DNA of 64,000 bases from an uncultured Pseudomonadota bacterium (GTDB lineage Bacteria; Myxococcota_A; Polyangia; Fen-1088). The stretch is taken from positions 7,532 to 71,531 of the forward strand of contig CAVTSM010000009.1 of the NCBI GenBank assembly GCA_963737345.1. The letters run 5' to 3'. A program made the translations under genes and the position numbers. Of the stretch, positions 29,879 through 56,195 are shown in pieces; within the stretch, counting starts at the first letter, position 1, and each line of letters begins with the position of its first letter. The notes below the pieces were generated by a model. That model searched no databases. It had not been told where the DNA came from and saw only the letters and a program-made list of their open reading frames with translations.

Positions 29879-30225
29879 ACGAGCCGCAACTTTACCCCCG
29901 GCCCGCCGAAGTGCCCTCATGCGGAACCTTCATGGGACCCTGGCCGGCATCCGGTGCTGGGAAGCGTCTTGGCGTCTCGGCGCCCGCGAGCTCACGGGCG
30001 CCGACGACTTTGTTCGCCGTTTGATCGTCGAGGCTGCGGGACATCTGGGTGCCCGCAGCCTGCTGCGGGACCCGCGGCAAATTTGGCGGCCGGTGTTGGG
30101 CTCCCCTGACAATCTCCCGGAACGGATGGAGACCTGATGAGCCCGTGGAGCGGCACAAGTTGTGGAATTGACAGGTGTTCTTTGTAACCGTGCCTGACTG
30201 CGTTCGATACTGTCCACTAGCGGTA

Positions 30226-30263
30226 CCCTCAATTATCCCTCACAATAGAGGGATAATTGAGGG
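30226..30263. promoter_or_regulatory. Perfect 16-bp inverted repeat (putative antitoxin operator) overlapping the RBS of the TA operon
   Basis: ccctcaattatccctc (30226-30241), 6-nt spacer, gagggataattgaggg (30248-30263). The GGGAG at 30261-30265 lies 5 nt before ATG 30271. A TTGACA hexamer sits at 30168-30173. Confidence 0.6.
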
Positions 30264-30270
30264 AGTGAAC

Positions 30271-30639
30271 ATGCGTCTCGAAGCCACCATCCCCGATAGT
30301 CGCGCCCAGGCAGTCGACCGCCTCGCGGAAGAGCTCGGTCTTTCGAAGAGTCAGGTCGTCGATGAAGCGGTCGCCATGTTCATTCAGGCCGTCTCGGCAG
30401 TCCGGGGCGGTCGGCGCCTCGTCGCCGTAGCCACCGATCCGAACAGCGGCCCGGACTGCCTGATCATGACGCCCACACTCTCAGCCCTCGAGTGGACCTC
30501 GCGGTCGGAGCCGCTGCACATCTCGGTTGAGGCGCTCGAGCGGGTGCGCGCGCTGATTGCCGAGCCGCCGGCGCCCAGCGCAGGGGCGCGCGCGGCGGCG
30601 GCCCGTTTCAAGGCGGGCTCGCGCCAGTCTGAGAAATGA
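30271..30639 (+). CDS. RHH-type antitoxin (TacA-like)
   Basis: ORF 30175-30639 with ATG 30271 after the RBS. N-terminal RHH-like MRLEATIPDSRAQAVDRLAEELGLSKSQVVDEAV. ATGA overlap with the GNAT gene. Confidence 0.7.
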   Translation: MRLEATIPDSRAQAVDRLAEELGLSKSQVVDEAVAMFIQAVSAVRGGRRLVAVATDPNSGPDCLIMTPTLSALEWTSRSEPLHISVEALERVRALIAEPPAPSAGARAAAARFKAGSRQSEK

Positions 30640-31178
30640 TCACAGCGCCAGAGACCCGCACTGTCCGGGTGACTGCCGAGGACGCGGCGAGCGGGTTTCG
30701 GTGCGGTGATGCGGCGCTCGACCAATTCTTCGCCCGCTACGCTTGCTCGAACGACGAGCGCGGGATTGGTCGGACGTACGTTTTGAGACGCTCCGGCGCC
30801 GCGGGCCAAGAGCTGCCGCGTGTCTTGGGATACTACACACTCAGCATGGCAACGATCAGCGCGCCCCTGATCGCGAAGGCGACGCTCGAAAAGCTGCCGA
30901 AGTACCCGATGCCGGCGGCGCTCATCGGCCGCCTCGCGGCAGACGAGCGTACCCGGGGCGCAGGCCTGCGCGTCGGCGAGACGCTGCTCATGGACGCCTT
31001 TGCACGGGTCCTGGCGGCGGCCGAGAACGTCGGCTGCTTCGGTGTGGTCGTCGACGCGAAGCACGAGGCGGCCGAACGCTTCTATCGCCGGTATGACTTC
31101 TCGACCGTGGACGAAACCGCGTGGCCGAGGAAGATGTTCATCGCGATGGTGACGGTGCGCGAAATGTTCGAGCCCTAA
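30636..31178 (+). CDS. GNAT-family acetyltransferase toxin (TacT/AtaT-like)
   Basis: FRCGDAALDQFF, GYYTLSM, LIGRLAADERTRGAGLRVGETLLMDA and VVDAKHEAAERFYRRYDF match the GNAT toxin pattern. Confidence 0.8.
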   Translation: MITAPETRTVRVTAEDAASGFRCGDAALDQFFARYACSNDERGIGRTYVLRRSGAAGQELPRVLGYYTLSMATISAPLIAKATLEKLPKYPMPAALIGRLAADERTRGAGLRVGETLLMDAFARVLAAAENVGCFGVVVDAKHEAAERFYRRYDFSTVDETAWPRKMFIAMVTVREMFEP

Positions 31179-31398
31179 CGGCCGGCGAAGAGAGCCAGGC
31201 CGCGGTACGGCTGAGGTTGCGACACTCGCCGCCCGGAAGGGACAGCTCATCCGTTCGCGGAATCACGTGCGCGGTGCGCGTCTTGGTGTCAAGAGATCTG
31301 GGCGCAGAAGAGTCATCGGGGAGACTTTTTCGCGTTAGCCGCCACTGGCGACGGATGTCGCCGAGTTTCTGTTTCGGTATGTCTCGCGGGAAAGTTCG

Positions 31399-32952
31399 AT
31401 GGAAGTACTGAGACCCGACACCCGGCTCGGCCCCGAGGGCCGGTTTGTCATCCGGAACCTGGTGGGCAGCGGGGGGATGGGACAGGTGTACCGGGCGCTC
31501 GATGCCGTCATGAAGCGCGAGGTCGCGATCAAGACGCTGCACAAAGACCTGGTGACCGCCGAGCCTCAGTACGCCGAGCGCTTCCTCAACGAGGCAATCG
31601 CGGCGGGCGGCATCACTCATCAGCACGTCGTCAAGATTTACGACTACGGCGTCCACGACGGCCAGCCCTACATCGTCATGGAGTACCTCCAGGGCAAGAG
31701 CCTGAGCGCCGTCCTGTTGGCGGCGCCGCTGGCGATCGAGCGGGCCGTAGATATCGTGCTGTCCGCGTGCAGCGCGGTGTACTTCTGCCACCGCCACAAG
31801 ATTTTCCACCGCGATCTGAAGCCCAGCAACATCTTCCTGGTCGACACCGAAGATCGAGACTTCGACCATGTCGTCGTCCTCGACTTCGGGGTCGCGAAGA
31901 TCGCGACCCAACCCGACTTAACCAAGGCGGGCTCGTTGATGGGGACGCCGTCATTCCTCGCCCCGGAATCGATCACGGCCAGGAACGCGGATCCTCAAAG
32001 TGACCAGTACTCGTTGGGCGTGCTGCTCTACTATGCGCTGACGCGAAAGCTGCCGTTCCGCGCAGGGTCGGACCACGAGCTCTGGCAGGCCATCCGCCAG
32101 GGCGCCTACAAGCGCCCCTCTGAGCTCCGACAGGAGATCCCGCCGGGCCTAGAAGAGGTCATTCGACAGGCGATGAACGTCGACCCGAGGGCCAGGTTCG
32201 CGAACGTCCACCTACTCGGCCGGGCGTTGCTCCCGTTCGCTTCGCCCGCGGGAAGGCGGCATTGGAGCAGGCTCTTCACCGCCGCTCCCAGACCCATCAA
32301 GGACCCCTCGCCGTCCATGGCGATGATCGCGCCGTCACTCGAGACGCAAACGACCGCTGTAGATGTCGTACGCCGCGCAGGCGACACGACGATGGGCCCG
32401 TTGGCGCTCGCCCCCGAGCGGGTCCCTGATAGCGCGGAGTCGATGTCTGTCTCGATCGAGGTGGATACGGGCGCCGTCGCGGATAGAAGGACAGGGGACG
32501 CACCGCCTCCCGAGCCACTCGATCTGCCTATCACGCCTGCGGCCCTCAAGACTGCAATCCCGACGGCTGGGAGGATCGTCAATCCGCGATCAGTGGCAAT
32601 GGCCGCCGCCCTGATCGGCATCGCTGTAGCTGGCGCTGTCGCGATGCGTTCGGCCAGCCGACCGCCTGCGCGTGCAGCTGCCGCCGTCCCGATCCGGGTG
32701 GTCGCCTCGCCTCCCGCGTCCGCGCCTTCCTCTCCGGTCGGCCCGGCGCCGACTGCGGCGAACCGAACCGTTGTCGCGGGCTCCCCGGCGAAGGCGACCG
32801 CTCCCGCCGCTCCGCCCGCTCCGTCGGCTGCTCCGGGGGACGCGGAGCATAACCCTGTCACCGCGCGTCTCCGGCACTCGGCAGACAGCAAACACCATCA
32901 CCAGCCCCGCCGCGTCCCGCGCGACGAGAACGGTTTCCCCATCATCGAATGA
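31399..32952 (+). CDS. Hanks-type Ser/Thr protein kinase with a TM segment and a Pro/Ala-rich C-terminus
   Basis: GSGGMGQVY, VAIK, HRDLKPSNIF, DFGVAK, GTPSFLAPE. Confidence 0.9.
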   Translation: MEVLRPDTRLGPEGRFVIRNLVGSGGMGQVYRALDAVMKREVAIKTLHKDLVTAEPQYAERFLNEAIAAGGITHQHVVKIYDYGVHDGQPYIVMEYLQGKSLSAVLLAAPLAIERAVDIVLSACSAVYFCHRHKIFHRDLKPSNIFLVDTEDRDFDHVVVLDFGVAKIATQPDLTKAGSLMGTPSFLAPESITARNADPQSDQYSLGVLLYYALTRKLPFRAGSDHELWQAIRQGAYKRPSELRQEIPPGLEEVIRQAMNVDPRARFANVHLLGRALLPFASPAGRRHWSRLFTAAPRPIKDPSPSMAMIAPSLETQTTAVDVVRRAGDTTMGPLALAPERVPDSAESMSVSIEVDTGAVADRRTGDAPPPEPLDLPITPAALKTAIPTAGRIVNPRSVAMAAALIGIAVAGAVAMRSASRPPARAAAAVPIRVVASPPASAPSSPVGPAPTAANRTVVAGSPAKATAPAAPPAPSAAPGDAEHNPVTARLRHSADSKHHHQPRRVPRDENGFPIIE

Positions 32953-32961
32953 GGTCGTCCC

Positions 32962-33861
32962 ATGGTTGTCGGTCGTTCCTATGCCTGGATCGCGATCTTC
33001 CTCGCTGCGGTCATCTGTTCATCCGCTCGGGCTGCTGAGTCTGAAACGGCCGACCAACTCGTCGCGAAGGGCGTGGAGCTGCGAAAGAAGGGCGATCACG
33101 CCGGTGCCCTCCGCGAGTTCCAGGCCGCGCACCAGAAAGAGCCCTCTGGTCGGACCCTTGCTCAAATGGGCATCGCCGAGGCCACGTTGCAGCACTGGGT
33201 CGACGCCGAAAACCACCTATCACAAGCACTCGAGTCGACTATGCCGTGGGTCGAGAAGAATCGCGCCACCCTGGAGCAAACCCTTCAGACAGTGCGGACC
33301 CACACGGCGGAAATCTCCATTTACGGCACGACCGGAGCTGTTGTTACGGTCGGTGACAAGATCGTGGGCCGCATCCCTCTACCGTCGAGCCCGCTCGTGA
33401 ACGAAGGCACCGTGACCATCAAGGTCGAGAGTCCCGGCCACAAGCCGTTCGTGGCGACGCTGCCCGCCAAGGGTGGCGCACAACTGATCGTGACGGCCAC
33501 TCTCGAACCGTTGCTGCCCGCGTCGCCGCCGCCCGCTCCTCCGGTCGTCCCATTGGTGTCGACGCCGAGCCGTGACGGCCGGGACACGATGCCCGCGAGT
33601 CGCCCGTGGCAGTGGTGGACGGGCATTGGTCTGGTGACAGTAGGCGTCGCGGCGATGACCTGGGGAATCGTCTGGGTCGCCGTCGACGGCAACAATACCG
33701 GCGTCAAGCCGGGCCAGGTGTTCTCGACCCGCACGCCTGGATGGTTCCTCCTGGGTGGAGGCGTCGCCGGGGCCCTCGGGGGCGGCTACCTCCTGTATTC
33801 GAGCCGCCACGGGGACGTGCAAATCGCGGCGTCGCCATCTGGGTTAATCGGACGCTTCTGA
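32962..33861 (+). CDS. PEGA-domain membrane protein with a TPR-like N-terminal region
   Basis: Signal peptide (IAIFLAAVICSSARAAE), a PEGA-like beta segment (VTVGDKIVGRIPLPSSPLVNEGTVTIKVESPGHKPF) and a C-terminal TM helix. Confidence 0.6.
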   Translation: MVVGRSYAWIAIFLAAVICSSARAAESETADQLVAKGVELRKKGDHAGALREFQAAHQKEPSGRTLAQMGIAEATLQHWVDAENHLSQALESTMPWVEKNRATLEQTLQTVRTHTAEISIYGTTGAVVTVGDKIVGRIPLPSSPLVNEGTVTIKVESPGHKPFVATLPAKGGAQLIVTATLEPLLPASPPPAPPVVPLVSTPSRDGRDTMPASRPWQWWTGIGLVTVGVAAMTWGIVWVAVDGNNTGVKPGQVFSTRTPGWFLLGGGVAGALGGGYLLYSSRHGDVQIAASPSGLIGRF

Positions 33862-34557: not shown

Positions 34558-36150
34558 ATGACCGACGAAGACACCTCGACACTGGGCGGGCTCGGCGCGA
34601 TACGCGAGTCGAGCGGCCTAGCCCTGATGCCCGCCCTGACGATTCTGGTACACCCCGATATCAGGCGGGTTGGCGAGATCGCACCGCTCACGGCACTACT
34701 CGATGCGCGCCAGGCGAAAGTCGACCGAGACGAGCCGCTCTTCTTCCTGGGCGATGCCGATACGGGGCGCGGCCTCGAACACAGAGCCGTATCAAAGAAG
34801 ACGACCTCGCTGGTCGTCGTTCAGCGCCCAGACTCCGGATTTGAGCTCCGCCCGGGCGAGAGCAACTACCCACTGGAGCTCGACTCGAAGCCTTTCGACC
34901 AGCCTCGGACGTTGACGCGCGACGATTTGGATCGTGGGCTCATCATCACCATCAACGAGCGCATCGTCCTCTGCCTCAAGCTCGTCCGGTATCCCGTGGT
35001 CCGGTCGCGCGATCTTGGCCTCCTTGGCGCCAGCGACGCGATCGAGGAAGTCAGGCGAAAGATCCTCCGCGCAGCGGCGCATCCGAAAACGCCTGTCTTG
35101 CTCCGCGGCGAGACCGGCGTCGGCAAGGAACCGACGGCGCGGGCGATCCATGCCGAGAGCGCGCGGGCCGAACACCCCTTTGTCGCTCTCAACATGGCGC
35201 GGCTCTCCGGGACGCTCGCTGACGGAGATCTGTTCGGTCACGCCCGCGGAGCCTTCACCGACGCCAAAGGCAGCCGAGCCGGCGCGTTCCTCGAGGCCGA
35301 TGGCGGAACGCTGTTCTTGGACGAAATCGGCGAGGCTTCGGCGGAAGTGCAGGCCAAGCTGCTTCGAGCGCTCGAGGACAATTCCATCGTGCCTGTGGGC
35401 GCCGATAGACCCCGGCCGGTCGATGTGCGCGTCATCGCGGCGACGGACAAGGATCTCGAGGAGGCGGTGCGCCAGAAGACGTTCGACGACGCGCTCTACT
35501 TTCGCCTTCACGTCTACCCGATCGACATTCCCCCGTTGCGCGCGCGCCGCGGCGATACGGGCGTGCTTTTCTTCGCCGGGGTCCGGCAGCGTCTCGCGGC
35601 GGTCGGAGCCGCGGCGCGCCTGGACGAGCATCCGGGCCGCCCGGCCTGGATCCCTGCGCGAGCCGTTGCCCGTCTGGCGCTCGCACCCTGGCCGGGAAAC
35701 ATCCGCGAGCTCCTTGCCGTCGCCGAGCGACTCGTCGTCGAGAGCACCGATCATCCCGATCTGGATGTGGACGAGTTCATCCGCAACGAGTTGGCGCGAT
35801 CAGCGCGACTGGCGCAGGATCCGAAGACCGAGGACGCGCCGTTTGTGGACCACCCGCGCGCGCCGGGCGTCCCTAAGCGCGGGACCATCACCCTGCAGCA
35901 GCTGCTCGAAGCCCTGGCGCGTGCCCGGTGGAACAAGAGCGAGGCCGCGCGTGCATTCGGCATGAGCCGGCCGACGTTCTACAGGCTGATCGAGGAGAAC
36001 CACCCGGCCGTCCACCAGGTCCTCGAGATCCCCTACGACGACATCGTCCGCGACTACACAGCCTGCGGCCGAGACGTGCAATCGCTCGCGACCAAGCTCG
36101 GCATCCCCGCCGAGGTCTTGCTCACCCGTCTAAGGCGCCCGCGCGGGTAG
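34558..36150 (+). CDS. Sigma-54-type AAA+ transcriptional activator (FHA-like N-terminus, Fis-type HTH)
   Basis: Walker A GETGVGKE, GAFTDA in place of GAFTGA, GGTLFLDEIG, RVIAATDKDL, and a C-terminal HTH (NKSEAARAFGMSRPTFYRLIEE). Confidence 0.85.
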   Translation: MTDEDTSTLGGLGAIRESSGLALMPALTILVHPDIRRVGEIAPLTALLDARQAKVDRDEPLFFLGDADTGRGLEHRAVSKKTTSLVVVQRPDSGFELRPGESNYPLELDSKPFDQPRTLTRDDLDRGLIITINERIVLCLKLVRYPVVRSRDLGLLGASDAIEEVRRKILRAAAHPKTPVLLRGETGVGKEPTARAIHAESARAEHPFVALNMARLSGTLADGDLFGHARGAFTDAKGSRAGAFLEADGGTLFLDEIGEASAEVQAKLLRALEDNSIVPVGADRPRPVDVRVIAATDKDLEEAVRQKTFDDALYFRLHVYPIDIPPLRARRGDTGVLFFAGVRQRLAAVGAAARLDEHPGRPAWIPARAVARLALAPWPGNIRELLAVAERLVVESTDHPDLDVDEFIRNELARSARLAQDPKTEDAPFVDHPRAPGVPKRGTITLQQLLEALARARWNKSEAARAFGMSRPTFYRLIEENHPAVHQVLEIPYDDIVRDYTACGRDVQSLATKLGIPAEVLLTRLRRPRG

Positions 36151-36315
36151 GCGCCCCCACCGTAAAGGCCCTCGCCCCTTACAGGCGGGCTTTACGGCCC
36201 CTTTACAGGACCGCACGCGCATCGCGCGCGTTTCTCGCGGAAGTCGCGCGCTCCGTGGCTGGCATCGCGCTTGCCATAGGTCCTTCCGTCCCACCCACGG
36301 AAGGAAGAAACCACG

Positions 36316-36975
36316 ATGCACGCTCAGACCACCGTCGCTGTGAAAGACACGTTCGAGAACACCGCGCGAGCGCCCTCTCGAGACGACTTGATTCGCTCGC
36401 ATCTCCCCCTCGTCCGGTCCATCGCCGCCCAGTTGATTCGTTCTGCTCCCCCGCCGCTGACGTTCGACGATCTCGTCGCATACGGACGCGTCGGCCTGGT
36501 CACCGCCGCCGGTCGGTTTGATCCGGCACGCGGGCCAAGCTTCGCGGACTACGCGGCGCCGCGCATTCGCGGCGCGATGTGGGACGGCTTTCGCAAGGAA
36601 GGACCGTTCGGCGACTGCCGGGAGCGCAAGCGCCTCCCTAAGCTGGAACGCGTTCGCGTCGAGGACGACGAGGAGCTCGGACGCTTGATGCTGGGCGACA
36701 AGTTCAGTTGCCCGCAGGACGACTGGGCGGAGCGCACGGACTACCGCCGGCTCGTCGCGCAACTGTCCGACGCCGTTGACCGGCTACCACCCCATCTGCG
36801 CGCGTTCACACTCGCGCACTTCTACCGCGACGTTTCTCTCCACGATCTCGGACGCCAGCTCGGGGTGTCTAAGTATGCGGTTCAGCGCCTTCGCAACACC
36901 GCCGTGCGGGAAATCAGCTCGCTGTTGGTCACCCGTCAGCGCGACGTTCCCAAGGTGGCGGGAGGCCTTCAGTGA
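36316..36975 (+). CDS. Sigma-70 family sigma factor (FliA/group-3-like)
   Basis: Region 2: DLVAYGRVGLVTAAGRFDPARGPSFADYAAPRIRGAMWD. Region 4: VSLHDLGRQLGVSKYAVQRLRNTAVREI. Confidence 0.8.
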   Translation: MHAQTTVAVKDTFENTARAPSRDDLIRSHLPLVRSIAAQLIRSAPPPLTFDDLVAYGRVGLVTAAGRFDPARGPSFADYAAPRIRGAMWDGFRKEGPFGDCRERKRLPKLERVRVEDDEELGRLMLGDKFSCPQDDWAERTDYRRLVAQLSDAVDRLPPHLRAFTLAHFYRDVSLHDLGRQLGVSKYAVQRLRNTAVREISSLLVTRQRDVPKVAGGLQ

Positions 36976-37206
36976 GCCGCTGCTTCTGTAGGGCGCTCGC
37001 GGAGCTGTCCGTGCTGTCGGATGACCCGCGCGAGGAGACGCGCCTGCGGCGGACGATATTCGGCATCGAAATTCAGCACTGGCGGCTCGCGAGCACGATT
37101 GTCATCCCGGAGGGGGGAGGCCCGGGCTGCAACTCAGAAGGCATCGCGGGGGCGATCCCGCGCGTCGCCCGACTCGACGAGTCGACGGTTGAGAACCTCG
37201 CGACGG

Positions 37207-37682
37207 ATGCCCGCCGTGGGTAACGCAGCGACGGGGGAGCGGGAGCCTTCGCGCGCGGCGGCCGAGGCGGACCGGGAAGGGCTGACGATCGAGCTTGGGA
37301 CTTCGGAGGTCGAAATCGAGGCCATGTCGTCCAGCACGATCGCCGACGAGGTCGGTCCGACGGTCGTCGCCATCCCAATCAGGAACCAGCTGGCGGCGGC
37401 ACGCATCGCTCACGCGCTCTCGAACGCCCGAGAAGCGCAAGCGCTCATCGACGAGGCCCTCGAGCTCGCCGCAACAGTCCGGGGCCTGCATGCTGGAGAC
37501 GTATCAGCTCGGCGCCGCGCGCGGAGCCCTGGGCAACACAATCGATCTGGCTCGCGCGACACGCGACAGCGGCGTCGGGCGGGGGAAGCGACGGTTCCGC
37601 GCTCGCCGCCGACCTCAAAAGGGACCCCGCCTACGAGGAGATCGACATCTGGCTCTCCTTCGGAATTCCCGTCACGTCCTGA
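37207..37682 (+). pseudogene. Frameshifted hypothetical gene
   Basis: Protein-like stretches sit in three different frames: ...IADEVGPTVVAIPIRNQLAAARIAHALSNAREAQALIDEALELAATVRGL, then MLETYQLGAARGALGNTIDLARATRD, then SDGSALAADLKRDPAYEEIDIWLSFGIPVTS stop. Low certainty. Confidence 0.3.
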
Positions 37683-37693
37683 CCATCCACCTC

Positions 37694-38323
37694 ATGAACC
37701 GGGAGCAGTCACCATGGAATCGAGTTCCCACCACCTTCTCCGATGCCATCCGCGCGCTGCGCTATCAGATCGCCGATCTGCTGGCCAACATCGAAGCCGA
37801 GAATCACGGCCTCGACGCTCGCACCGCCACTCTCGCGCTTCTTGATACCGCTTATGGCGCGGCGCTCACCTTTTGCGCCACTCCCGATCGCGCTCGTCAC
37901 CATGTCGGCGATGCGATCGACAGCATCCACGCTGGTGCCCTCGCTCGAGGGGCGCGAAAGACTGCCGCCGAGGCGGTGAGCTCGGCGACCCGCCGCGACG
38001 CCTGGACTCGGCCAGCTGCGCCCCCGAGTGGACGGCCGTTCTTGGCCGTTACGGTCGCCGTCCTCTCGTGGCTGACAATCGCCTTCCTGGCTCACCGCGG
38101 CCCGGTGTCTCCCTGGAACTTGCTCGGGCCGGTGTTCTGCACCGCGCTGGCGGTAATGAGCGCGTACCGGTTCGTGGTGTCGGGCGGCTACATCCGCCCT
38201 GGTCTTGCTCTCTCGCGCGTGGTCAGCGCTTGCGAGCCCTTTAGCCGCAGCCCGCAACAAACGCGCCCGCCGCCCGAGTCACCTTCAAGCACGTCGACAA
38301 CACCCTCGCAAGGAACACACTGA
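37694..38323 (+). CDS. Hypothetical membrane protein
   Basis: ATG 37694 within ORF 37295-38323. Two hydrophobic segments (FLAVTVAVLSWLTIAFLA, LLGPVFCTALAVMSAYRFVV). Its stop overlaps the next ATG (TGATG). Confidence 0.4.
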   Translation: MNREQSPWNRVPTTFSDAIRALRYQIADLLANIEAENHGLDARTATLALLDTAYGAALTFCATPDRARHHVGDAIDSIHAGALARGARKTAAEAVSSATRRDAWTRPAAPPSGRPFLAVTVAVLSWLTIAFLAHRGPVSPWNLLGPVFCTALAVMSAYRFVVSGGYIRPGLALSRVVSACEPFSRSPQQTRPPPESPSSTSTTPSQGTH

Positions 38324-39933: not shown

Positions 39934-39935
39934 AC

Positions 39936-42000: not shown

Positions 42001-42041
42001 CGGGCCACAAGCCGCAGCGACTAACGGATGCAGGAAGTACT

Positions 42042-44528: not shown

Positions 44529-44702
44529 GGCTGGGACAGCCCACAGGACGCCGGACTACTTCTGATCCTCCCTTTCGCGGCAGATGGTAAGTACGCGACT
44601 GCGATGCAGGCGGAGAGCAACATGCGAAGGCTAGTGGACGAACTGGAGTACCGCGCGGACCAAGCTGCGAACATGGACTGGTAACTACGACTTAGTGCCG
44701 GT

Positions 44703-45884: not shown

Positions 45885-45987
45885 GCCAAGACTGTCTCAC
45901 AAGATCGCACCGTCGTAGTCCACCTGGCCGACTACGTGGACGCCGACTGCCGCGGGCCCCATCATCCGGCCTGCCGGACGGCGTCCC

Positions 45988-46983: not shown

Positions 46984-49900
46984 TGGGCGCCAGCATACTT
47001 CGCGTGCTGGAGCAAACAATTGCTATCAATGAGCGCGTTCGTTCAAGGCCGAACTGGAGTGCGCACTCGGACGGCGGGTTGTTGTACGATGCTGCGGTGA
47101 CCGCCTTCGTCGTCGCCCGCGATCGCGATGCGTACGCGACGATCAGAGGCTTTGTCTACCAGATTGAGCTGACGCTCTCTCGGTGGATGGAACTCGCCGA
47201 GACTGAAGCATTGGAGTTGGAGTGCGGCGAGGATATCGACGTTGTCGGCCGTGTTCTGGGAGCGGAAGACGGCGATCCGTCCGTACACCGAATCTTGGAG
47301 CAGGTGAAGTATCGCGCGAAGGCAATCACACTTCGATCGCCCGAATCGCTGGGTGCCATTGCGAATTTCGTGGAGCACCGCGAAGCGAATCCGGGGCTTC
47401 GACTGAGATTTCGGTTTGTAACGCACGCCGAGGCAGGTCGAGAGCGGCCGACAACCCTGCCGGACAACTATTCGGGAATAGGTGCCTGGGAAGCCATACG
47501 GAGACAAGAAGTACAGGGTGAGGTGCTGCGCGACCTACTTCGCGGACTCGGCACGCTTTTGCAAACTGCCGAAGTTCCCGGAGGCGCCGCTCCTTTAGCC
47601 TGGGCGCGCCTGCAGGAGATTGCGCGGTCGGAAGCGGAGCTTCGCAGCCTTGTCGGAGATTTTGAATGGAGTCTACGAGCCGGGATGCCCGCCGAAGTCG
47701 CAGAGGGCCTTCGGGAAACCCTTTTGCGACAGTTCGGAGCGTCGGATGCCGAGACGGCACAAATTCAATATTTGCGCCTCTTCGATCGGGCCGTGCGCAC
47801 CCTTTGCCGGCCAGGTCTCAAGAGGCTGACGGCAAAGGATCGTGACGAAATCCTAGTCCAGCCTTCGCCCACGCCCGAAGAGCAGCGACGGCACGCTCTT
47901 CTTCGCGAAGTGCTCGGTGAGCTTCGTGAAATCGTCGACGGACACGGCAGACACATCCAACGTCTGGAAGATCAGATGGGTGATGTGCAGGTCCAGCTAC
48001 AAAAGATGGTGGGAACGGAATTCGGACCGCTCCTGCCCGAGGGGGCACCCGACCTCAGCCTTCCGATCGGTCTCGTCCATGCAGCGTCTCGCCGGGAAGC
48101 GATTGATCTGCTGGGCAAAGCTTCTGCCTCTGCAACGTGGACCGTCGTTCAGGGTGGACTGGGGAGCGGGAAGAGTGAACTGGTTCGGACCTTTGTTGCT
48201 CGAAGAAGCACACGGCACCCGTGGGTCCGTCTCCGTGATCTCGGTCCAGCGGCGGCCAGTGCACGCTTGCGGCAGGCGGCTCGACACGTGTCTTGCGGGC
48301 GAACGTTCGATGATCCGAAGAGCCTAGGTCGTGCACTGGCGGAGTACGTTGGGCGGGAAGGCCTTCTCGTCCTCGACGACATGCCGCGCGTCGACGGAGG
48401 TGGCGAACTCTTCGATGACGTCGTGCGAATCGTGAATGCATTGGACGCCGTCGGTGGTCGACTACTGTCGACGAGTAGCTACGATATCGATCCCGCCGTG
48501 CGGGAACGCTTCGACGGTAGCCGACTAGCGGTGTTGTCGGCTCCTACCTTCACGGACGACGACATTCGCGAGTGGCTTCGGTCCGTCGATGCTCCAGAGC
48601 GATGGTCGACGCGCGAAGCATGCGGCTACCTTGCGATGCGATCGAGTCGCCACCCGGTTCTTTTGGCAGACGCCATCCGAGGCCTGAAGTCGATGGGATG
48701 GCCTCTGGTGGACGACTTCGAACGCGCGGCTGGTGAACGGCCGACGCCGGAACGGGCGACCATGCGCCGTTTGGTGCGGTCAGTACCCGTGGAGGACCGG
48801 CGCAACCTTCTTTATAGGCTCACTCTGGTCAGAGGACCTATATCTACCGCCGAGGTGCGGGCCGTCGCGGAAGCACCGCCACCGATCGGCGAGTCACAAG
48901 CGCACGTGTCCGAACTTGCCGGCCTATGGCTCCAGACCGACTCAGGAGACCGTTACGTCGTGTCGCCGCTTGTAGCGCGCCTTGGCGATACCGAACTGAC
49001 TGAGGTGGTACGGCGGACCGTAAATCGACAGCTAGGGATGCTCGTGCTTTCACGCGGTTCGCTGGGGGTAAGTGACGTTGTGCGGGCATGGTACTACCTG
49101 ACCGACGCCGGCATGCGCTCGAAGGCTGTGGCGCTCCTCACTTGGGCGTTGGGCGCCGCGAGAGCCGCAGGGGATCGCCGCACACAACTGCTCCTACTCC
49201 GTCTCGGAAGAAACGCTTCGCTTACGGAAGTGTCTGCTGGAATGCAGATCAACCTGCGCGCGACTCAGATCAGCGTCGCCGCCCGTCTCGGTAAGTCCGC
49301 AGCTGACATCGAGACTGAGCTCGCCGTCCTGTTGGACCAGCCGCTTCCCGATGGTGAGAGGTGGTCGCTGGTCGTCGCTGCTACAGCTCTTACTATCGCG
49401 CGAGGGCCAAAGAACGACGGCTTGGTAAGTCGGGTGTTCAGCCTCGCGCTTCAACACTACTCGACGGCACGTCTTCCCAACGGGGTGGAAATTGCTGACG
49501 TCATGCCAGAGACCTTCGAGCAGCTGATCTGGCTGCAGGCTGGGAACGTTCAGTCCTCCGAAGGCGTTGCGGCATGGCTGCAGACGCTCGAGTCGATGAG
49601 TCCGGAGCAGCGCCAGACAGCTCTGGCGGGCGATTCGTATCTAGATGGCTGCTCCGCCATCTCGTCGCGTGTGTGGTTGCGCGAAAATGCGAAACCACGT
49701 GACGAACAGAACTGGTCATCGGCGGAGAGTTTGTTGGGCGAGATCGAAACGGCCGGCCGAAGGCTCGGGCTGGAGCCCCTGTGGGCGTGGGCGCTGCGCA
49801 TTCGGATCATCGCTCTTGCTGAACACCTTGGTCGGCCAGAGGACGCGATCGCGTTCGGGCGGGAAGGCCTAATCGTTGCAGTCACTCCGCTGGGCCAGTT

Positions 49901-51290
49901 CGCACTGCGCGACGTCATCGGTCATCAGTTGGTTGGGATAGGTCGCTCAGGCGAGGCACGGCCGTATCTCGAGGAAGCTCAGCTCCCAGTGTTTGAGGGC
50001 TTTGAGCTGTTCCGGATTCGGTCTCGGTTGGAGCTGGCATCTATCTTGGGGCGAGAAGAGCGCGCGAAGGCCGTCTCTTTGACGGGAGAAGCACTGGATC
50101 TGGCAAACGAGACCGCAGCTCTGCCCGCTTCGGAGGTAGTCATGTGTCTCGCAGAAGCAGCGATCGCCCGCTTCGATGCCGGTGGAGTCTCCGCTGCGTT
50201 CGACGCTTGGGACGATGCGCTCGGTCGAGTAGTCGACGGGGTGTCTGCTGAACCAACCGACAAATGGAAGGGGCTCCTTGTCCGATGCGGTCATGTGTCT
50301 GGATACTTCGTCTCGATGGCCCGTACAGGCGCTCCACCGGAGCGTAAGGCGGGCACGCCATACGCCCAACCAAAGCTGGGTATGTTCCTGGGCGAGTCTG
50401 CATCGTTGGCGGGGTTCTTTGCCGAGACATCGGTTGGCCTGCTTATGACTCACGGCGCTCTTTACGCAGAGGCCGTCGGCCGCGACGACCGTGCGGCCGC
50501 GTGGGCGCTGCGTGGAATCGACGAGGCGACCAGAACTGGCGATAAGCCGACGCTCGCAATTCTCGCTACTACGGCCGTGAATCCCCTAATAGTTGCAGGC
50601 GACTATGGTGCTGCGCTGGATGCGGCGTTTCGCGGTGCGAGCATCGCGTCGGAGGCCCTCGCGACCATCTCACCTGACGCCGGTCAGCGCCCGCCGGAGA
50701 AGGTTGTCGATGAGGCCGAGGAGAGAGCGCTCGCACTCGCTGTCGTGCCGGTGGCACTCCAGCTCGCTGTTGCTGTGCAATCAAAGGGCGAGGATGTGGC
50801 CGCGAGAATCAACAGAATCGGTATCGCGTGTGAGATCCTGGCGGGAAGGTCCGCACGTCCAGACATGTGGAAGAGTGCGGCTGGAGTGCTTGAGGAATCG
50901 TTTGTGCGTGGAGCGACTGTGAGGCGACTGTACGAAGAGTCCCAGAGGCTGGGTGCGAAGTACGGACGCGTATTCCAAGCGGTCGCCTATATCGGAGCCG
51001 CGATTAGCCCAAACGCGTCGCTGGAAGACACGCTGGCGTTCCAGTGGGAGGTGCGCCGGTATGTTCTGAATGCGTTTGGCTCTAAGTCATCGACGCTGCG
51101 CCTCTTTCTTGATCCTTTCGTCGAGACCTTTTGGGGCGAGGCAACCAGGGAACAACGCTATCGCTTCCGTAACCCACAGATACTCGCAGTGGACTTCGAA
51201 GCCGCACGTGCGGTCGGCGAGGGAACCCGGGCCGGGGCGATTCTTCGAGTGGTTGGGTCGGCTCTTGGCGTGATCTTAAAGGGCGAGTAA
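46983..51290 (+). CDS. Large NTPase: N-terminal PD-(D/E)xK (DUF4297/Cap4-like) nuclease module, P-loop (STAND-like) core, long helical-repeat C-terminus
   Basis: 1435-codon intact ORF. The start is uncertain (TTG 46983, GTG 47004, TTG 47079). RGFVYQ, ECGEDID (about 47220-47240), EQVKY (about 47298-47312), Walker A GGLGSGKS (48153-48176), Walker B LLVLDD (about 48366-48383), then ~950 aa rich in helical Leu/Ala repeats. Confidence 0.85.
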   Translation: MGASILRVLEQTIAINERVRSRPNWSAHSDGGLLYDAAVTAFVVARDRDAYATIRGFVYQIELTLSRWMELAETEALELECGEDIDVVGRVLGAEDGDPSVHRILEQVKYRAKAITLRSPESLGAIANFVEHREANPGLRLRFRFVTHAEAGRERPTTLPDNYSGIGAWEAIRRQEVQGEVLRDLLRGLGTLLQTAEVPGGAAPLAWARLQEIARSEAELRSLVGDFEWSLRAGMPAEVAEGLRETLLRQFGASDAETAQIQYLRLFDRAVRTLCRPGLKRLTAKDRDEILVQPSPTPEEQRRHALLREVLGELREIVDGHGRHIQRLEDQMGDVQVQLQKMVGTEFGPLLPEGAPDLSLPIGLVHAASRREAIDLLGKASASATWTVVQGGLGSGKSELVRTFVARRSTRHPWVRLRDLGPAAASARLRQAARHVSCGRTFDDPKSLGRALAEYVGREGLLVLDDMPRVDGGGELFDDVVRIVNALDAVGGRLLSTSSYDIDPAVRERFDGSRLAVLSAPTFTDDDIREWLRSVDAPERWSTREACGYLAMRSSRHPVLLADAIRGLKSMGWPLVDDFERAAGERPTPERATMRRLVRSVPVEDRRNLLYRLTLVRGPISTAEVRAVAEAPPPIGESQAHVSELAGLWLQTDSGDRYVVSPLVARLGDTELTEVVRRTVNRQLGMLVLSRGSLGVSDVVRAWYYLTDAGMRSKAVALLTWALGAARAAGDRRTQLLLLRLGRNASLTEVSAGMQINLRATQISVAARLGKSAADIETELAVLLDQPLPDGERWSLVVAATALTIARGPKNDGLVSRVFSLALQHYSTARLPNGVEIADVMPETFEQLIWLQAGNVQSSEGVAAWLQTLESMSPEQRQTALAGDSYLDGCSAISSRVWLRENAKPRDEQNWSSAESLLGEIETAGRRLGLEPLWAWALRIRIIALAEHLGRPEDAIAFGREGLIVAVTPLGQFALRDVIGHQLVGIGRSGEARPYLEEAQLPVFEGFELFRIRSRLELASILGREERAKAVSLTGEALDLANETAALPASEVVMCLAEAAIARFDAGGVSAAFDAWDDALGRVVDGVSAEPTDKWKGLLVRCGHVSGYFVSMARTGAPPERKAGTPYAQPKLGMFLGESASLAGFFAETSVGLLMTHGALYAEAVGRDDRAAAWALRGIDEATRTGDKPTLAILATTAVNPLIVAGDYGAALDAAFRGASIASEALATISPDAGQRPPEKVVDEAEERALALAVVPVALQLAVAVQSKGEDVAARINRIGIACEILAGRSARPDMWKSAAGVLEESFVRGATVRRLYEESQRLGAKYGRVFQAVAYIGAAISPNASLEDTLAFQWEVRRYVLNAFGSKSSTLRLFLDPFVETFWGEATREQRYRFRNPQILAVDFEAARAVGEGTRAGAILRVVGSALGVILKGE

Positions 51291-51566: not shown

Positions 51567-52012
51567 TCAACGCTTCAAAACTGCAGCTATCCGCGGATGC
51601 AGTTGGTCAACTGATCGCGAGACACCCTGAGCGCACCTCAGAAACTGTGAACGCATGTCTTCGACCTGAATCTCTACCGCAATTCGTTCCGCGATGTCGT
51701 CGGCAAGCTCGGGACCGCAAATCGCGAGTACCCGGCCCATTACGAACCAACGATTGTGGGACGCTCCCAGTTCTGCGGCTGCAACGGCGGCCGCGGCCTT
51801 CGCAGCCAGCGAGCCCGCCGAGAACACCGCTTGTACTCGGCCGATGATCACGTCACAGAATGCAAATGTGAATCCCGTTGAGCGAACCCAGCGGCAGTAT
51901 TTGTCGGCGATGCGGTCGCCTAATCCTTCGCCGCGACCTGCGAGCTGCTTTAAGTGCTCGGAGTCGAGGGCGGCAAGACTCGGCTCATCTTCGCCAGAAT
52001 CCGGGAGAGCGT
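51567..52012 (-). pseudogene. C-terminal part of the IS-interrupted kinase gene
   Basis: The reading frame ...DALPDSGEDEPSLAALDSEHLKQL...HPRIAAVLKR stop continues exactly from 53490 once the IS and one CTAG copy are removed. Confidence 0.65.
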
Positions 52013-52016
52013 CTAG

Positions 52017-53489
52017 CAGCCCGTGGTGGAAGCCCTTCCGCCGCTCAGGCCGGGACGTGGACGACCGCGATGGGCGTCTCGAGCGCGAATCGGACCGCCG
52101 GGCGGACCTGTCGCCAGTAAGCCCGCAGCGAGCGCAGCAACGCGAGGAGGGCGACCGCAAAAGCGGCCGCCCGGCCCTGGAGGCACCTCGGCTTGCCGAC
52201 ACCGAAGCGCGTTCGCATCAGCAAGGCCAGGTTGAGGCCCGCGATGTGCACCAGGAGCCGCTTGGCGATGTTCTCGTGTTTGCGCAGGTGCGTGCGTCGC
52301 ATGCCGCCGGTTTCGAAGGCGTGAGCAAAGGGGCGTTCGATGAGCTCGCCGCGCAGGCGCATCAACGCGAGGCCGCGGCGTCCGTTCTTGCGTCGACGAT
52401 TGGCGTACACCGCAGCGCACTCCGCCTGCTGCCCCGGCCATTTCTGCCGACCACGTTGAGGCTCGGCGATGTACGTGCGCCAGCCCGCTTGCTGCAGCGA
52501 CAGCAGCACCATCTTGCTGTGGTAGCCCTTGTCTGCCACGGCTTCCTCAAGATCTCCCTCACGCTGCGATTCGTCGCCGGCAATCTCGCGGGCGTCGTCG
52601 AGATTCTTCACCGCCGCGTCGAGCGTCCCTTCGATGGTCGCCGTGTCTCCCGCCGACGCCGGCACCAGCGTCACTGCCACGACTGCGCCGGTATCAAGGT
52701 CGACCGCATGCTCTTCCTTGTGGGCCAGGTGCGTCCGCCCGTCCTTCATCTTCGTGATCTTGGCGTCGGGATCGTTCGGGTTGAACCAGTCGTCGTTCGA
52801 GCCCTTCTTCTTTCGCTTCCGATCGAGGCGCGCCAGATCTTCGCGCGTCGGTGTTTCGATCCCCGAAGCCTTGGCCAGGTCTTCGAGAAACGTCTGGTAT
52901 GTGCGGCCATCGTCGCGCCGAACGATCGAACGCATCGCCGCGTTCGCCTCCAGCGTCGTCGCGTCCACACCGATCGTCTTGCCCTTGATGAGCCCGGCCC
53001 CGTCGAGTACGCCCAGCACCCAGGTGAACACGGCCTGATGTGTCTCCAGATCGATCAGCCGCCGCGTCCGCGAGATCGTCGAGTGGTCGGGCGTCAGCTT
53101 GCTGGCCGGCACTCCGATAAAGTCACGCAGACTCAGCGAGTCGGCGGCTCGCCAGGCGATCCCTCGTTCGCTATCGATGCCCTCGAAGAACCCGAGCAGC
53201 AAGCTGCGGAAGTAGATTCCCGGAGCAAGCCCCGGCCGTCCCATCTTCTTCGCGTAGAACTTCGAGCAGAGCCGCTCGACGTACCGATCGAACCCTTGCT
53301 CCCCCAGGACACGATTCACCGCCCGATAGAAAGGATGGCTCTGCGACCGTAGCTGCTGATGCGTGACGAACAGGTCTTCCTGCTCGCCCTCTCGCTTTCC
53401 CATTGCCACGTCCGCATCCTGCCCAACCCGAGATCCTGCGTCGATCGTGATCAGGTGTTCAGGTCACCCGAGACTTCCACCACGGGCTG
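52017..53489 (-). mobile_element. Insertion sequence (IS5/IS1182-superfamily type), 1473 bp, 16-bp terminal IRs, flanked by CTAG on both sides
   Basis: cagcccgtggtggaag (52017-52032) is the exact reverse complement of cttccaccacgggctg (53474-53489). CTAG lies at 52013-52016 and 53490-53493. A single transposase ORF is inside. Confidence 0.85.
52045..53409 (-). CDS. DDE transposase (InsH-like N-terminal domain plus IS4/IS5-type catalytic domain)
   Basis: 454-aa ORF. GRPGLAPGIYFRSLLLGFFEGIDSERGIAWRAADSLSLRDFIG, TIGVDATTLEANAAM, AVADKGYHS and RGELIERPFAHAFETGGMRR are typical of this transposase type. Confidence 0.9.
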   Translation of the reverse strand: MAMGKREGEQEDLFVTHQQLRSQSHPFYRAVNRVLGEQGFDRYVERLCSKFYAKKMGRPGLAPGIYFRSLLLGFFEGIDSERGIAWRAADSLSLRDFIGVPASKLTPDHSTISRTRRLIDLETHQAVFTWVLGVLDGAGLIKGKTIGVDATTLEANAAMRSIVRRDDGRTYQTFLEDLAKASGIETPTREDLARLDRKRKKKGSNDDWFNPNDPDAKITKMKDGRTHLAHKEEHAVDLDTGAVVAVTLVPASAGDTATIEGTLDAAVKNLDDAREIAGDESQREGDLEEAVADKGYHSKMVLLSLQQAGWRTYIAEPQRGRQKWPGQQAECAAVYANRRRKNGRRGLALMRLRGELIERPFAHAFETGGMRRTHLRKHENIAKRLLVHIAGLNLALLMRTRFGVGKPRCLQGRAAAFAVALLALLRSLRAYWRQVRPAVRFALETPIAVVHVPA

Positions 53490-54342
53490 CTAGGTAATCG
53501 GCAAACTCTTCCGCTTTCTCGTTGCTCCAGGTGGCGATATCGGGCAGCTCGGCGATCCACTGTTGAGCTTGGGGGGTTGGCGGGATCTTTTGCGGAGTTG
53601 CTAGGATCGATAAAAGCGCGGCTCTAAGGGCGGCGACATTTTTGAATCGTTTCGCCGGGGAAAGCTCCGTGCACTTTTCAATCACCCGACCGATCGGACC
53701 CGGCGCAGAATGACGCTGGTACGGAATCCGAGGAGTCGAACCATAGATATCGTGGAGGATGCAGCCAAAAGCATAGATGTCAACGGCCGGGGTGGACCCG
53801 CTGAAATGTGTGGCTTGCTCGGGCGCGCAGTAATGCAAGGTGCCCCAAGCTGAATCCACCGATGTAAGCTTCGTCGTTGTACCTGTCGGTGGCAACGCGA
53901 GCCCGAAATCAGACAGGCGCCAGTGACCGTCGAGCAACAGAACGTTTTGGGGCTTCAAGTCTCGGTGGGTGTACCCGAGTCTATGGAGTTCTTCTAAGCC
54001 GTCCAAAATGTCGGCTAGCGGTTCCACACTGACGAAGCCGGCCGCCTTCTCGGCGGTAATCTGATCTCCGTAGTTCTTGGCGGCGAGCGGCATCGCGAAC
54101 CACGGAGGCGCATCTTCAAGGTGGTGCTCGATGACCGGTACTACGAACTCCACGGCGATCGTCGACTGTATTCTAACCTCACGACGAAACCTCGCCCGAA
54201 GCTTCGAAATGTCCGCGCCTGCTAGTGCGGGCCCGGGATCAAATACCTTTCTCGCGGCGATCTCGCCGTTCGCCAGCCGGACTTGTTCAACCCGACCGAA
54301 GCCCCCTCGGTTTATGATCGACAACACATCAGGAGCCGCCAT
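53490..54342 (-). pseudogene. N-terminal Ser/Thr kinase domain of the IS-interrupted gene
   Basis: GGFGRV, AARK, HRDLKPQNVLL, SDFGLA and YCAPEQ. In its present state the ORF reads 9 codons into the IS and stops at 53464. Confidence 0.8.
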
Positions 54343-55186
54343 TCATCGGTGTCGCTTTCTGGCGCTCAACCTCGCCTTGGTCCCCTAGGCTGAGGTTCAG
54401 CGTTTCAGAGCGGTATCGGCTGGTCAAGTTCTTCACATATGAAGTGGTCGACGATTGCCTACGGATGTTGCCCGAACTCCTTCGCTCACGGCGCGCGGAT
54501 CGACACACTCGCCCTGTGTGAGCGCGTCACGGAGACGCTTTACGCGGTGACGACCGTGTATCCCTCCGCCGACAATAAGGGGCCCGTCCTAAGGCTGGCT
54601 GACGGTCGCTGGTAGTCTGCGTTCCGGCCGACCCTGGATTGAGGATCCTGCCGCGCTTCAGTGGACGGTGTCGCTACGTTGCCTGAGCGACTAGCAAACG
54701 GGGGCGCAGTGATGGCCCCCGGCGGGTCTGCTGCGTTCACAGGCACGCCGTACTGCACGCTCTCCGTCATCGGCACACCCGCACGCGATGCACGCCGGCA
54801 CCGCAAGAAGGTCAATCGCATCCATTCTCGATTTGCGCGGCGGGGCGATCCCGTCGACGGCGCTCGGTTGCGCGTCCGAAGACCGCGGCCAGCCCTGGCT
54901 GTCGCGGTTCGAGTCGACCCTGGCGCCGGAGCAACGCGTGTCGTTCGATCTTCCGGCCTGCGGGATCTCACGTTCGCCGTCCCTGCCTCTCCTCCCGGGC
55001 TGGAATCGAGCACCGGGGCGACTGCGCTCGGCGCCCCTCGGCGGACCCGCTGCGCGGGCTCGCGCTTCTGCCTTTTCGGCTCCCCCACGGGGACGTGGTC
55101 CCCCCGAAAACGCAGCGCTCGGCCGAGGGGAGCCGGCTGCGCGCCCCCACCTGGGTGCCTCGATTCCAACCACAGAGGAGACCCAG

Positions 55187-55679
55187 ATGAAGGACGCAAA
55201 CTCCACGACCCCAGCGCCAGCCGGACCCGGACCGAACGACCTCGGGATGCGCAAGCTCGGCGAGCGAGCCACGAGGATCTTCACGATGCTGGTCGACGGC
55301 GTCGACGTCGGGGACGCGAAGAAGCTGGACAACGCGCCGGGCGCGTTCATGGCGGTGACGGTCGACTTCCTCATCGCGCGCCACCACCAGGCGCCCGTGG
55401 GCGGTGTATGCGGTCGCGCACCGGTACCTCGTGAACGGCGACCTCATCCCCGATCCCGACGTCGAGTTCTACGTCGTCGATGATCCCGGGCGACCTGGTA
55501 CCAAAGCCGTCTATCCGATCGCCATCGACCACGGGCCGCTCGCGTATCACTGCTACATCGACGTGGACCACGCCGGCCGGTTGACGCTCTCAAGCGCCCG
55601 CGGCCAAGCCGAGCTCGCACGGTTCTGCGACGTCTGGATGAAGAACATCGCCGCTCAGCAGCGGCTGGAGGTGCATTAG
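55187..55679 (+). pseudogene. Hypothetical ICE-associated gene with one frameshift near 55395
   Basis: ATG 55187 after GAGGAG. MKDANSTT...FMAVTVDFLIARHHQAP in one frame, then WAVYAVAHRYLVNGDLIPDPDVEFYVVDD...FCDVWMKNIAAQQRLEVH in another. The junction is at a CCC run. Confidence 0.5.
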
Positions 55680-55827
55680 CCATGCCGGCGACCGCCGCGC
55701 GTGCCGGTCCCCTCTCCCGGCGCAACTGCCGGCTCGGCTGCCCGAAACCCTCGTAGGGTGGCGCCTCTCGTGAGCCTCGGGGCTCCGGGCGCGCGCCAAG
55801 CACTGCAAACGCCGAAAGGAGACCCAC

Positions 55828-56079
55828 ATGGCCAGCGATACCAAGAAGAAAGGCGTCCTCCACGTCTTCGGGATCGAGAAGCGAGACGATCGCAGCGAGC
55901 CCGGCAAGACATTCAACATCTGGACGCGCATCGGGACGGCGTTCGTCAATGACGACGAGTCGATCAACATCAAGCTCAGCTACGTCCCGGTCGGACCTGA
56001 CATCACCATCCAGGTCCGCAAGCCGGACGAGCGGCGCAAGGGCGCTGAGGAGCGCGGTGGCGAGGCGCGGCGTAGCTGA
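55828..56079 (+). CDS. Small hypothetical protein
   Basis: 83-aa ORF preceded by AAAGGAG (about 55816-55822). No motif recognised. Confidence 0.5.
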   Translation: MASDTKKKGVLHVFGIEKRDDRSEPGKTFNIWTRIGTAFVNDDESINIKLSYVPVGPDITIQVRKPDERRKGAEERGGEARRS

Positions 56080-56195
56080 CGGCGCGCGGCGGCGCGGGAC
56101 GCCTCGCGCCGCCCGCGCCCCGTTCTCGCGAACGCCGCAACCCGCGGCGCCGCTGCCCGAGTGGATCCGTCGGACACACCAGAAAGGGACCAACC

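Follow-up and report, generated by a model that had tools for sequence, protein, structure and literature searches.

How old is the DNA that separates trbB from trbC in a conjugative element of a Polyangia genome, and does this separation matter for transfer? The window, i.e. the whole stretch of 64,000 nucleotides analysed here (G000:C9:7532-71531), comes from a metagenome-assembled genome (MAG) of 6.09 Mb in 18 contigs. It carries what appears to be an integrative and conjugative element (ICE) of the RlxS/TraG/TrbB-I type, similar to those of IncP, Ti, Tn4371 and ICEMlSym. For the characterised Tn4371-like ICEs and ICEMlSymR7A elements, the genes trbBCDEJLFGI are reported to be contiguous in every case (PMC2789088, PMC8627217). 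In the window this contiguity is lost at two places, with 26.3 kb between the end of trbB (29878) and the first codon of trbC (56196) and 1.6 kb between trbL and trbF. The original prediction, made from the window's letters, regarded the 26 kb as a cargo hotspot of nested insertions and expected the separation to compromise transfer. Relatives were compared by tblastn with chosen window proteins and open reading frames (ORFs), and gene content was assessed by Pfam and ORF scans.

We consider the following reading likely. An insertion would have separated trbB from trbC in the common ancestor of a clade of these elements, so that relaxase-traG-orf154-trbB became one unit and trbC-I an operon with a head of its own. 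A regulatory module would be the first part to have been inserted, and in it an activator turns on the element's own sigma factor via a conserved sigma-54 promoter. A KacT-like GNAT/ribbon-helix-helix (RHH) pair, a triple single-stranded DNA-binding protein (SSB) region, an 11-kb low-GC island with a kinase gene and a host insertion sequence (IS) in this kinase gene would have followed as later layers. Finally, the window copy would have been eroded by frameshifts and truncations and would have lost transfer.

Age of the trbB-trbC interval

Both edges of the gap were confirmed by ORF and Pfam scans, with the correction that trbC is frameshifted and that 56196 is the start of a pseudogene. Its N-terminus at this position consists of a signal sequence and a GLPWE motif. 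The predicted order trbC-D-E-J-L-F-G to the right of the gap was recovered by similarity. The premise that trbB and trbC are neighbours elsewhere also holds, since in addition to the published elements trbB is directly followed by trbC-D-E at four intact loci of more distant Myxococcota relatives (L076, L018, G009:C17 and G419:C46).

Judged by TrbB, the closest relatives are MAGs of Polyangia and Myxococcales. Six more loci from the same bacterial family were found by tblastn to have non-trb genes after trbB, and are called split-type here: G089:C142 and G328:C430 (TrbB 88% identical to that of the window), G360:C40 (57%), G296:C1037 (56%), G296:C863 (54%) and G316:C4 (50%, a pseudogene). A maximum-likelihood tree of TrbB included six of the seven split-type sequences and left out the G316 pseudogene. 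The window and the other five formed one clade (support 92/81), which was sister to the canonical G009, and L076 and L018 were placed outside. Path lengths from the window to G296 and G360 were 1.4-1.6 substitutions per site. Because the split-type sequences form one clade that is sister to a canonical element, the split seems to be old and ancestral to this clade, and is most simply explained by a single insertion long ago.

The two edges of the interval likewise predate the window copy, since the junction genes are conserved in relatives. These are the 72-aa ORF on the left and the DUF6908 gene and 83-aa ORF on the right (Table 1). The DUF6908 homologue of G360 lies near a contig end.

The DNA that follows trbB differs between relatives, in line with the predicted hotspot. 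In G089 a toxin-antitoxin pair is followed by genes for a tyrosine integrase, AAA+S8 proteases and AbiE. G296 has a helix-turn-helix (HTH) gene, a beta-helix gene and the regulatory module, which is present in G316 and G360 as well. The window has both the module and the toxin-antitoxin pair, which it shares with G089 alone among the relatives compared, and in addition a defence-like island and an IS. Related elements thus carry different DNA at one backbone junction, which is what characterises a hotspot. In SXT/R391 ICEs, variable DNA is found at fixed intergenic sites within conserved transfer gene clusters. The element described here resembles them in that the same backbone positions are occupied by different DNA in relatives, with G089, G296 and the window differing after trbB. 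In contrast to SXT/R391, the oldest trbB-trbC layer is conserved and apparently regulatory, and the element family is unrelated. In G089 the tyrosine integrase gene and an ORC/CDC6-like fragment stand right after the toxin-antitoxin pair (L114 6462-8495), and another integrative element may have used the post-trbB site there.

The regulatory module

Approximately 11 kb of the interval (31.4-42.4 kb) have the same gene order in four elements, namely G296 (two copies), G316 and G360, whose TrbB is 50-57% identical to that of the window. The order is Ser/Thr kinase, TPR/PEGA protein, sigma-54 activator, sigma-54 promoter, sigma factor with a small partner, DUF3991-like protein, two Cys-rich lipoproteins and FHA-GGDEF protein. 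The part from the kinase through the second lipoprotein was seen in all four elements and the FHA-GGDEF gene in G296:C863 only. For the activator, module orthologues scored 332-356 bits compared to 191 bits for the best paralogue in its own genome, and the lipoprotein orthologues in the module also outscored own-genome paralogues by far. The intact lipoprotein genes of G296:C863 (378 and 268 aa) share 45-83% identity with the window pseudogenes.

The region in front of the sigma-factor gene was compared across all five loci. The sole conserved elements of this intergenic region are a ribosome-binding site and the sequence GGCAy-N5-TTGC, a predicted -24/-12 promoter. The site was recognised by eye and with a less stringent pattern; a strict sigma-54 motif scan of the whole interval and the relatives gave no hit beyond the site before the sigma gene. 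Upstream of the promoter, within the region 36150-36316 between the activator and sigma genes, repeats are present that are specific to each element, CTTTACGG and CTTTACAGG in the window and other motifs in each relative. They are likely the binding sites of the activator. The closest solved structures to the activator are those of ZraR, NifA, FleQ and NtrC, whereas its N-terminal domain of 150 aa matched no Pfam family or PDB sequence. The arrangement is like myxobacterial NtrC-like signalling in having an AAA+ sigma-54 domain with HTH_8, a GG-N10-GC promoter before the next gene and a kinase in the cluster. It differs in that the circuit lies on a mobile element beside trbB, in the unmatched N-terminal domain and in a GAFTDA loop.

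Two further genes in the interval, radC and the DUF6908 gene, are each directly preceded by a copy of a structured repeat. The repeat is ~170-185 nt long and contains a hairpin of ~150 nt with a long imperfect fold. Copy 1 shows 75.6% identity to 55029-55148. A third copy was found in G360 (L120 15435-15619), and a weak fourth match is located upstream of ssb-trbC in G296:C179. Among the first three copies, eight pairs show compensatory changes. No Rfam family matched in window 24-64 kb. The leader could be a single-strand promoter as in plasmid leading regions, or an RNA leader. When att-like direct repeats were sought around the window-specific DNA, the sole substantial pair (42764-42882 / 55029-55148, 76% identity) proved to be this leader of two genes and not an insertion scar.

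The gap of this lineage thus holds a conserved and typically myxobacterial signalling cassette of kinase, sigma-54 activator and sigma factor. More speculatively, and with a rather low probability in our view, the kinase/PEGA/activator/sigma cassette might be the transfer-control circuit of the ICE family. It would then sit between trbB and trbC so that trbC-I and leading-type genes (radC, DUF6908, ssb) obtain separate, signal-dependent promoters, and the hairpin leaders would be its outputs or single-strand promoters. If the cassette does control transfer, this would be unlike the quorum-sensing and excisionase circuits of proteobacterial relatives.

The synteny bears directly on the original proposal that all 26 kb are recent nested cargo and that moving trbB away from trbC-G compromises transfer, which we now regard as very unlikely. 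It is true that both GC and content vary along the interval, that the IS, the defence-like island and the toxin-antitoxin pair are not common to most relatives, and that canonical elements keep trbB and trbC contiguous (PMC2789088). However, ~11 kb and both junction genes were kept in elements whose TrbB has diverged to 50-57% identity, the split is placed at the base of the clade, and trbB appears to have been under purifying selection since then. For 31.4-42.4 kb the proposal is largely refuted by this synteny. The hotspot idea holds for the younger layers and for the variation in content, but not for the module and the junction genes, which are the part of the block that relatives conserve. 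Conservation of the block in close relatives had been named in advance as evidence against the proposal, and it was seen for this part.

The module also has to be considered with respect to how the split arose. Instead of by insertion, it could have come about by rearrangement, either with trb units being brought next to a chromosomal regulatory locus or with the module being host DNA captured by imprecise excision. The kinase and PEGA proteins match a chromosomal kinase-PEGA pair on C5 as well as they match the module copies, so that their orthology rests on synteny. In G009, moreover, trbB-I has no traG or relaxase gene upstream, so modules do move relative to each other. On the other hand, the activator, DUF3991-like and lipoprotein genes are without close chromosomal counterparts. 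L076 and L018 keep relaxase-traG-orf154-trbB-trbC in an order and orientation identical to the window minus the interval, which makes simple insertion the most parsimonious account and a rearrangement quite improbable.

Decay of the trb genes and loss of transfer

All genes of the set TraG plus trbB, C, D, E, J, L, F, G and I are recognisable, but frameshifts affect six of the nine trb genes. We counted at least nine frameshifts in 9.8 kb, distributed over trbC, D, E, J, G and I, whereas trbL and trbF are whole. The gene for TrbI lies beyond the window on contig C9 and consists of two frame pieces with one frameshift. The frame calls were guided by intact Trb proteins of L076 and G296, and the same guides align as single pieces in G296, G203 and G283. 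Within the interval, radC and the DUF6908 gene have one shift each, the two lipoprotein genes and the DUF3991-like gene also contain frameshifts, and the FHA-GGDEF gene is cut down to its FHA part. The left half from the relaxase to the sigma factor is intact, as are the young inserts.

As a control, the frame integrity of the remaining genome was checked. It contains 160 ORFs of at least 1000 aa, one of them of 5572 aa, and among 119 loci with kinase or activator paralogues (~100 kb) no more than 3-4 are frame-split, which corresponds to ~0.03 per kb. In the trb region (56.2-66.0 kb) there are ~0.9 frameshifts per kb. In addition, 12 of 13 break sites lack a homopolymer of four or more nucleotides. 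Because of the low rate of frame splits in the genome and the position of most breaks outside homopolymers, the decay looks real and local.

We also considered that the element is intact and functional, and that the frameshifts come from errors in the consensus of a metagenome assembled from long reads, caused for instance by polishing with reads of related elements. This MAG of 18 contigs is probably a long-read assembly, the broken genes are those that also exist in related elements, and the unique inserts (the 1435-aa gene and the IS) are clean. But relaxase, traG and trbB occur in related elements too and are intact, and neither the position of the breaks nor the lower frequency of frame splits elsewhere in the genome fits such errors. 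Furthermore, genes are truncated as well, as seen for the FHA-only and DUF3991-like remnants, and relatives show similar decay (G316 and five genomes with in-frame stops). Assembly error is therefore an unlikely explanation. The in-frame stops were observed in DUF3991-like fragments of G268, G292, G080, G407, G140 and G316, which suggests that many copies of this element type in the family are decayed remnants.

With six of its trb genes frameshifted, the element is probably a decaying, non-self-transmissible ICE. These breaks, nine or more in number, are a more plausible cause of lost transfer than the gap and would account for it more directly. The expectation that the separation itself compromises transfer was not supported. 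The ratio of nonsynonymous to synonymous substitution rates (dN/dS) was 0.15 for the window trbB, 0.10-0.21 for the group of trbB, the 72-aa ORF and the toxin-antitoxin pair, and 0.10-0.28 for the backbone genes common to the window and G089. Moreover, G296 has two split-type trbB blocks and, on other contigs, two complete trbC-I operons without breaks, each with ssb in front of it. No trbB is present within 4.5 and 9 kb upstream of these operons. The ancestral split, the low dN/dS of the backbone and the intact trbC-I of G296 without adjoining trbB together argue that the separation as such is tolerated. For annotation this means that a large gap in a type IV secretion system (T4SS) operon by itself is evidence neither for recent cargo nor for inactivation; in this element, inactivation would be signalled by the cluster of frameshifts.

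Several observations, in addition to the C5 kinase-PEGA pair, weigh against an ancestral insertion with a working module. The support of the split clade in the TrbB tree (92/81) is moderate. No single relative contig carries both an intact trbC-I operon and a trbB block of the split type, and the G296 MAG is fragmented; DNA overlap between its trbB-block contigs and its trbC-operon contigs was sought, and none was found. Since TrbE was not detectable in G089, G328, G360 and G316, the split arrangement could be a feature of remnants alone. Finally, the sigma-54 contact loop of the window activator reads GAFTDA, compared to GAFTGA or GSFTGA in three orthologues, and because of this change the module itself may be non-working in the window.

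Backbone, younger layers and neighbouring genes

The contents listed in the original prediction were all recovered: the toxin-antitoxin pair, kinase and PEGA genes, sigma-54 activator, sigma factor, SSB, radC remnant, frameshifted Cys-rich lipoproteins, defence-like genes, IS and split kinase. Their coordinates and those of the trb and backbone genes are given in Table 1.

Table 1. Position of the features in the window and the evidence for their assignment
Feature	Position	Strand	Evidence and state
Relaxase, RlxS-like (DUF3363), intact	24595-26331	+	Pfam DUF3363; 68% identity to G089
TraG type IV coupling protein, intact	26374-28443	+	T4SS-DNA_transf E 6.5e-106; dN/dS 0.13 vs G089
orf154, 154-aa ORF between traG and trbB	28440-28904	+	90% identity to G089
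trbB, VirB11-type ATPase (T2SSE), intact, 325 aa, left gap edge	28901-29878	+	T2SSE E 1.2e-35
72-aa ORF, left junction, conserved	29919-30137	+	81%, 75% and 42% identity in G089, G328 and G360, directly after trbB; dN/dS 0.21
Predicted type II toxin-antitoxin pair of a GNAT toxin (30636-31178) and, before it, an RHH antitoxin-like ORF (start probably at 30265)	30175-31178	+	4-nt overlap
Ser/Thr protein kinase, first module gene	31399-32952	+	Pkinase E 1.4e-47; 39-42% syntenic homologues after trbB in G296 (two copies), G316, G360
TPR/PEGA protein	32962-33861	+	Weak TPR_2 and PEGA matches; 36-39% syntenic homologues
Sigma-54 enhancer-binding protein (AAA+, HTH_8), intact	34558-36150	+	Sigma54_activat E 4e-57
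Predicted sigma-54 type promoter TGGCAT-N5-TTGC	36260-36274	+	~45 nt upstream of sigma-factor gene
Sigma-70-family sigma factor	36316-36975	+	Sigma70_r2 E 8e-15; syntenic in four relatives
Small partner ORF overlapping the sigma factor	36972-37223	+	Motif WGIEIQxWRL common with relatives
Three tandem SSB-like OB-fold units, partly decayed	38323-39578	+	Pfam SSB
DUF3991-like gene remnant, frameshifted and truncated	39438-39792	+	Intact 356-aa (G296) and 301-aa (G360) homologues align in two frames, residues ~15-152 only
Cys-rich lipoprotein pseudogene 1, frameshifted	40248-40798	+	Aligned with intact G296:C863 gene, two frames
Cys-rich lipoprotein pseudogene 2, frameshifted	41073-41997	+	Aligned with intact G296:C863 gene, two frames
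FHA-only remnant of FHA-GGDEF gene	41895-42371	+	FHA E 1e-18; matches residues 23-121 of 303-aa G296:C863 protein
Structured leader repeat (copy 1) just before radC	42746-42915	+	nhmmer E 9e-47; DNA fold z-score -3.78
radC-like gene, one frameshift	42913-43560	+	Partial RadC JAB match; HNHPSG motif in another frame
Low-GC defence-like island	43644-51290	mixed	GC 0.58-0.64; PADLOC PDC-S15 E 1.5e-41
FRG gene (PADLOC PDC-S15)	43644-44528	-	Pfam FRG
393-aa ORF	44703-45884	-	
SIR2 gene	45988-47019	-	Pfam SIR2_2; PADLOC SIR2
1435-aa NTPase	46983-51290	+	LmuA/DUF4297-like N-terminus
Ser/Thr kinase gene split by IS	51567-54342	-	Pkinase E 1.3e-25
IS, DDE_Tnp_1 + DUF772 transposase, 1482 bp	52013-53494	-	20-bp perfect terminal inverted repeats
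Structured leader repeat (copy 2) just before DUF6908 gene	55005-55190	+	nhmmer E 8e-51; DNA fold z-score -3.94
DUF6908 gene, one frameshift	55187-55679	+	Intact 168-aa G360 homologue aligns in two frames; Pfam DUF6908
83-aa ORF just upstream of trbC	55828-56079	+	G296:C179 has a homologue before ssb-trbC (45% over 42 aa)
Pseudogenes of trbC and trbD, each with one frameshift, right gap edge	56196-56812	+	trbC termini in different frames; trbD in two frames
trbE (VirB4) pseudogene, three frameshifts	56809-59311	+	820-aa G296 TrbE aligns in four frame segments; one piece in relatives
trbJ, signal peptide in other frame, at least one frameshift	59324-60079	+	NCBIfam TrbJ
trbL, single frame	60095-61372	+	Pfam TrbL
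447-aa ORF between trbL and trbF	61478-62821	+	Lower GC
trbF, intact	62960-63670	+	
trbG, three frames, two frameshifts, runs past window end	63701-64000	+	Similarity guides, contig C9

Several features place the element close to the Tn4371-family ICEs and ICEMlSymR7A, which combine MPF_T with a MOB_P relaxase (RlxS). These are TraG, a relaxase that resembles RlxS, a small ORF preceding trbB, the set of trbB and trbC-D-E-J-L-F-G-I without trbK or trbH, an S26 TraF-like peptidase, an SLT transglycosylase (Msi107 there) and ParA. Accessory DNA inside the backbone is a further likeness to the Tn4371 family (PMC2789088, PMC8627217). In contrast to these elements, the host belongs to the Myxococcota (Polyangia), trbB stands apart from trbC in the whole clade, and the relaxase reaches 312 bits (E 7.9e-93) against NCBIfam NF041267 relax_RlxS, below its curated cut-off of 850 bits. 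Descriptions of conjugative elements from Myxococcota are scarce, and a limited literature search found no paper on one. The window and its relatives would define a Polyangia ICE lineage in which the otherwise invariant linkage of trbB and trbC has long been broken.

Upstream of the relaxase gene, the backbone contains the genes of the TraF-like peptidase (19314-19910) and the transglycosylase (19898-20656), parA and a gene for a Toprim protein. The small ORF orf154 was found in every split-type and canonical Myxococcota relative. Synonymous divergence (dS) from G089 (L114) was 0.42-0.50 for orf154, trbB, the 72-aa ORF and the toxin-antitoxin pair, compared to 0.84-1.29 for traG, parA, traF and the Toprim gene. 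This lower divergence points to the segment 28440-31178 being recombinant (mosaic) relative to G089.

The GNAT toxin of 180 aa matches the structures of KacT, TacT and AtaT (E 5e-18 to 1e-12, with KacT at E 5e-18), and a small ORF upstream with weak RHH similarity overlaps it by 4 nt as in KacAT, TacAT and AtaRT. In contrast to KacAT and TacAT, the assignment of the antitoxin is weak, with CopG and MazE/RHH matches at E ~0.1 and no DUF1778 match. The toxin had no Pfam acetyltransferase hit at E 0.001.

The three SSB units follow one another as direct repeats every 305-310 nt and are 63-76% identical. This triple SSB is not shared with the four elements that have the module; G296 instead has one ssb gene just upstream of trbC.

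The interval is composite, as the original prediction had it. A GC scan revealed a block with a GC of 0.57-0.63 at ~43.56-54.5 kb, with steps at ~43.5 and 54.5 kb; the mean is ~65% for the window and ~69% for the MAG. No part of this block was found in any relative examined. It comprises the defence-like island and the split kinase gene, and the IS within it is recent. This IS has a transposase and terminal inverted repeats, interrupts a gene, and is present in five genomic copies, the four others being 99.7% identical and located on C3 (two), C13 and C17. When the flanks of the IS are joined, a kinase ORF of 429-430 aa is restored. The target duplication is ambiguous, as the IS ends in CTAG.

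Inserts were also observed outside the trbB-trbC interval, namely between a 173-aa ORF and traF, after the SLT gene and ahead of the backbone gene that follows it, and at the trbL-trbF junction. The distance between trbL and trbF is ~48 nt in G296:C179, and they are adjacent in L131. The 447-aa ORF found here in the window (61478-62821) had no family match. Insertion at intergenic sites of the backbone thus appears to be common in this lineage, which supports the hotspot idea for the younger layers. The two left inserts relative to G089, at 17.4-19.2 kb (17381-19231) and 20.7-21.9 kb (20727-21866), are one gene resembling a TPR/PMT_2 glycosyltransferase and one resembling DndB/DGQHR, and the Toprim-traF-SLT-parA backbone in which they lie is compact in G089.

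The right end of the element lies beyond the window. Among the scanned window ORFs no recombinase turned up, and no att sites were identified in the window; no search was aimed at an integrase or at the element ends. Contig C9 begins within a nonribosomal peptide synthetase (NRPS) gene, and its ORF of 5572 aa with A-C-PCP-TE domains occupies positions 1-9190 of the window (C9:3-16721) and runs off the contig start. The GC of this ORF is lowered as in the element, and it may be either cargo or adjoining chromosome.

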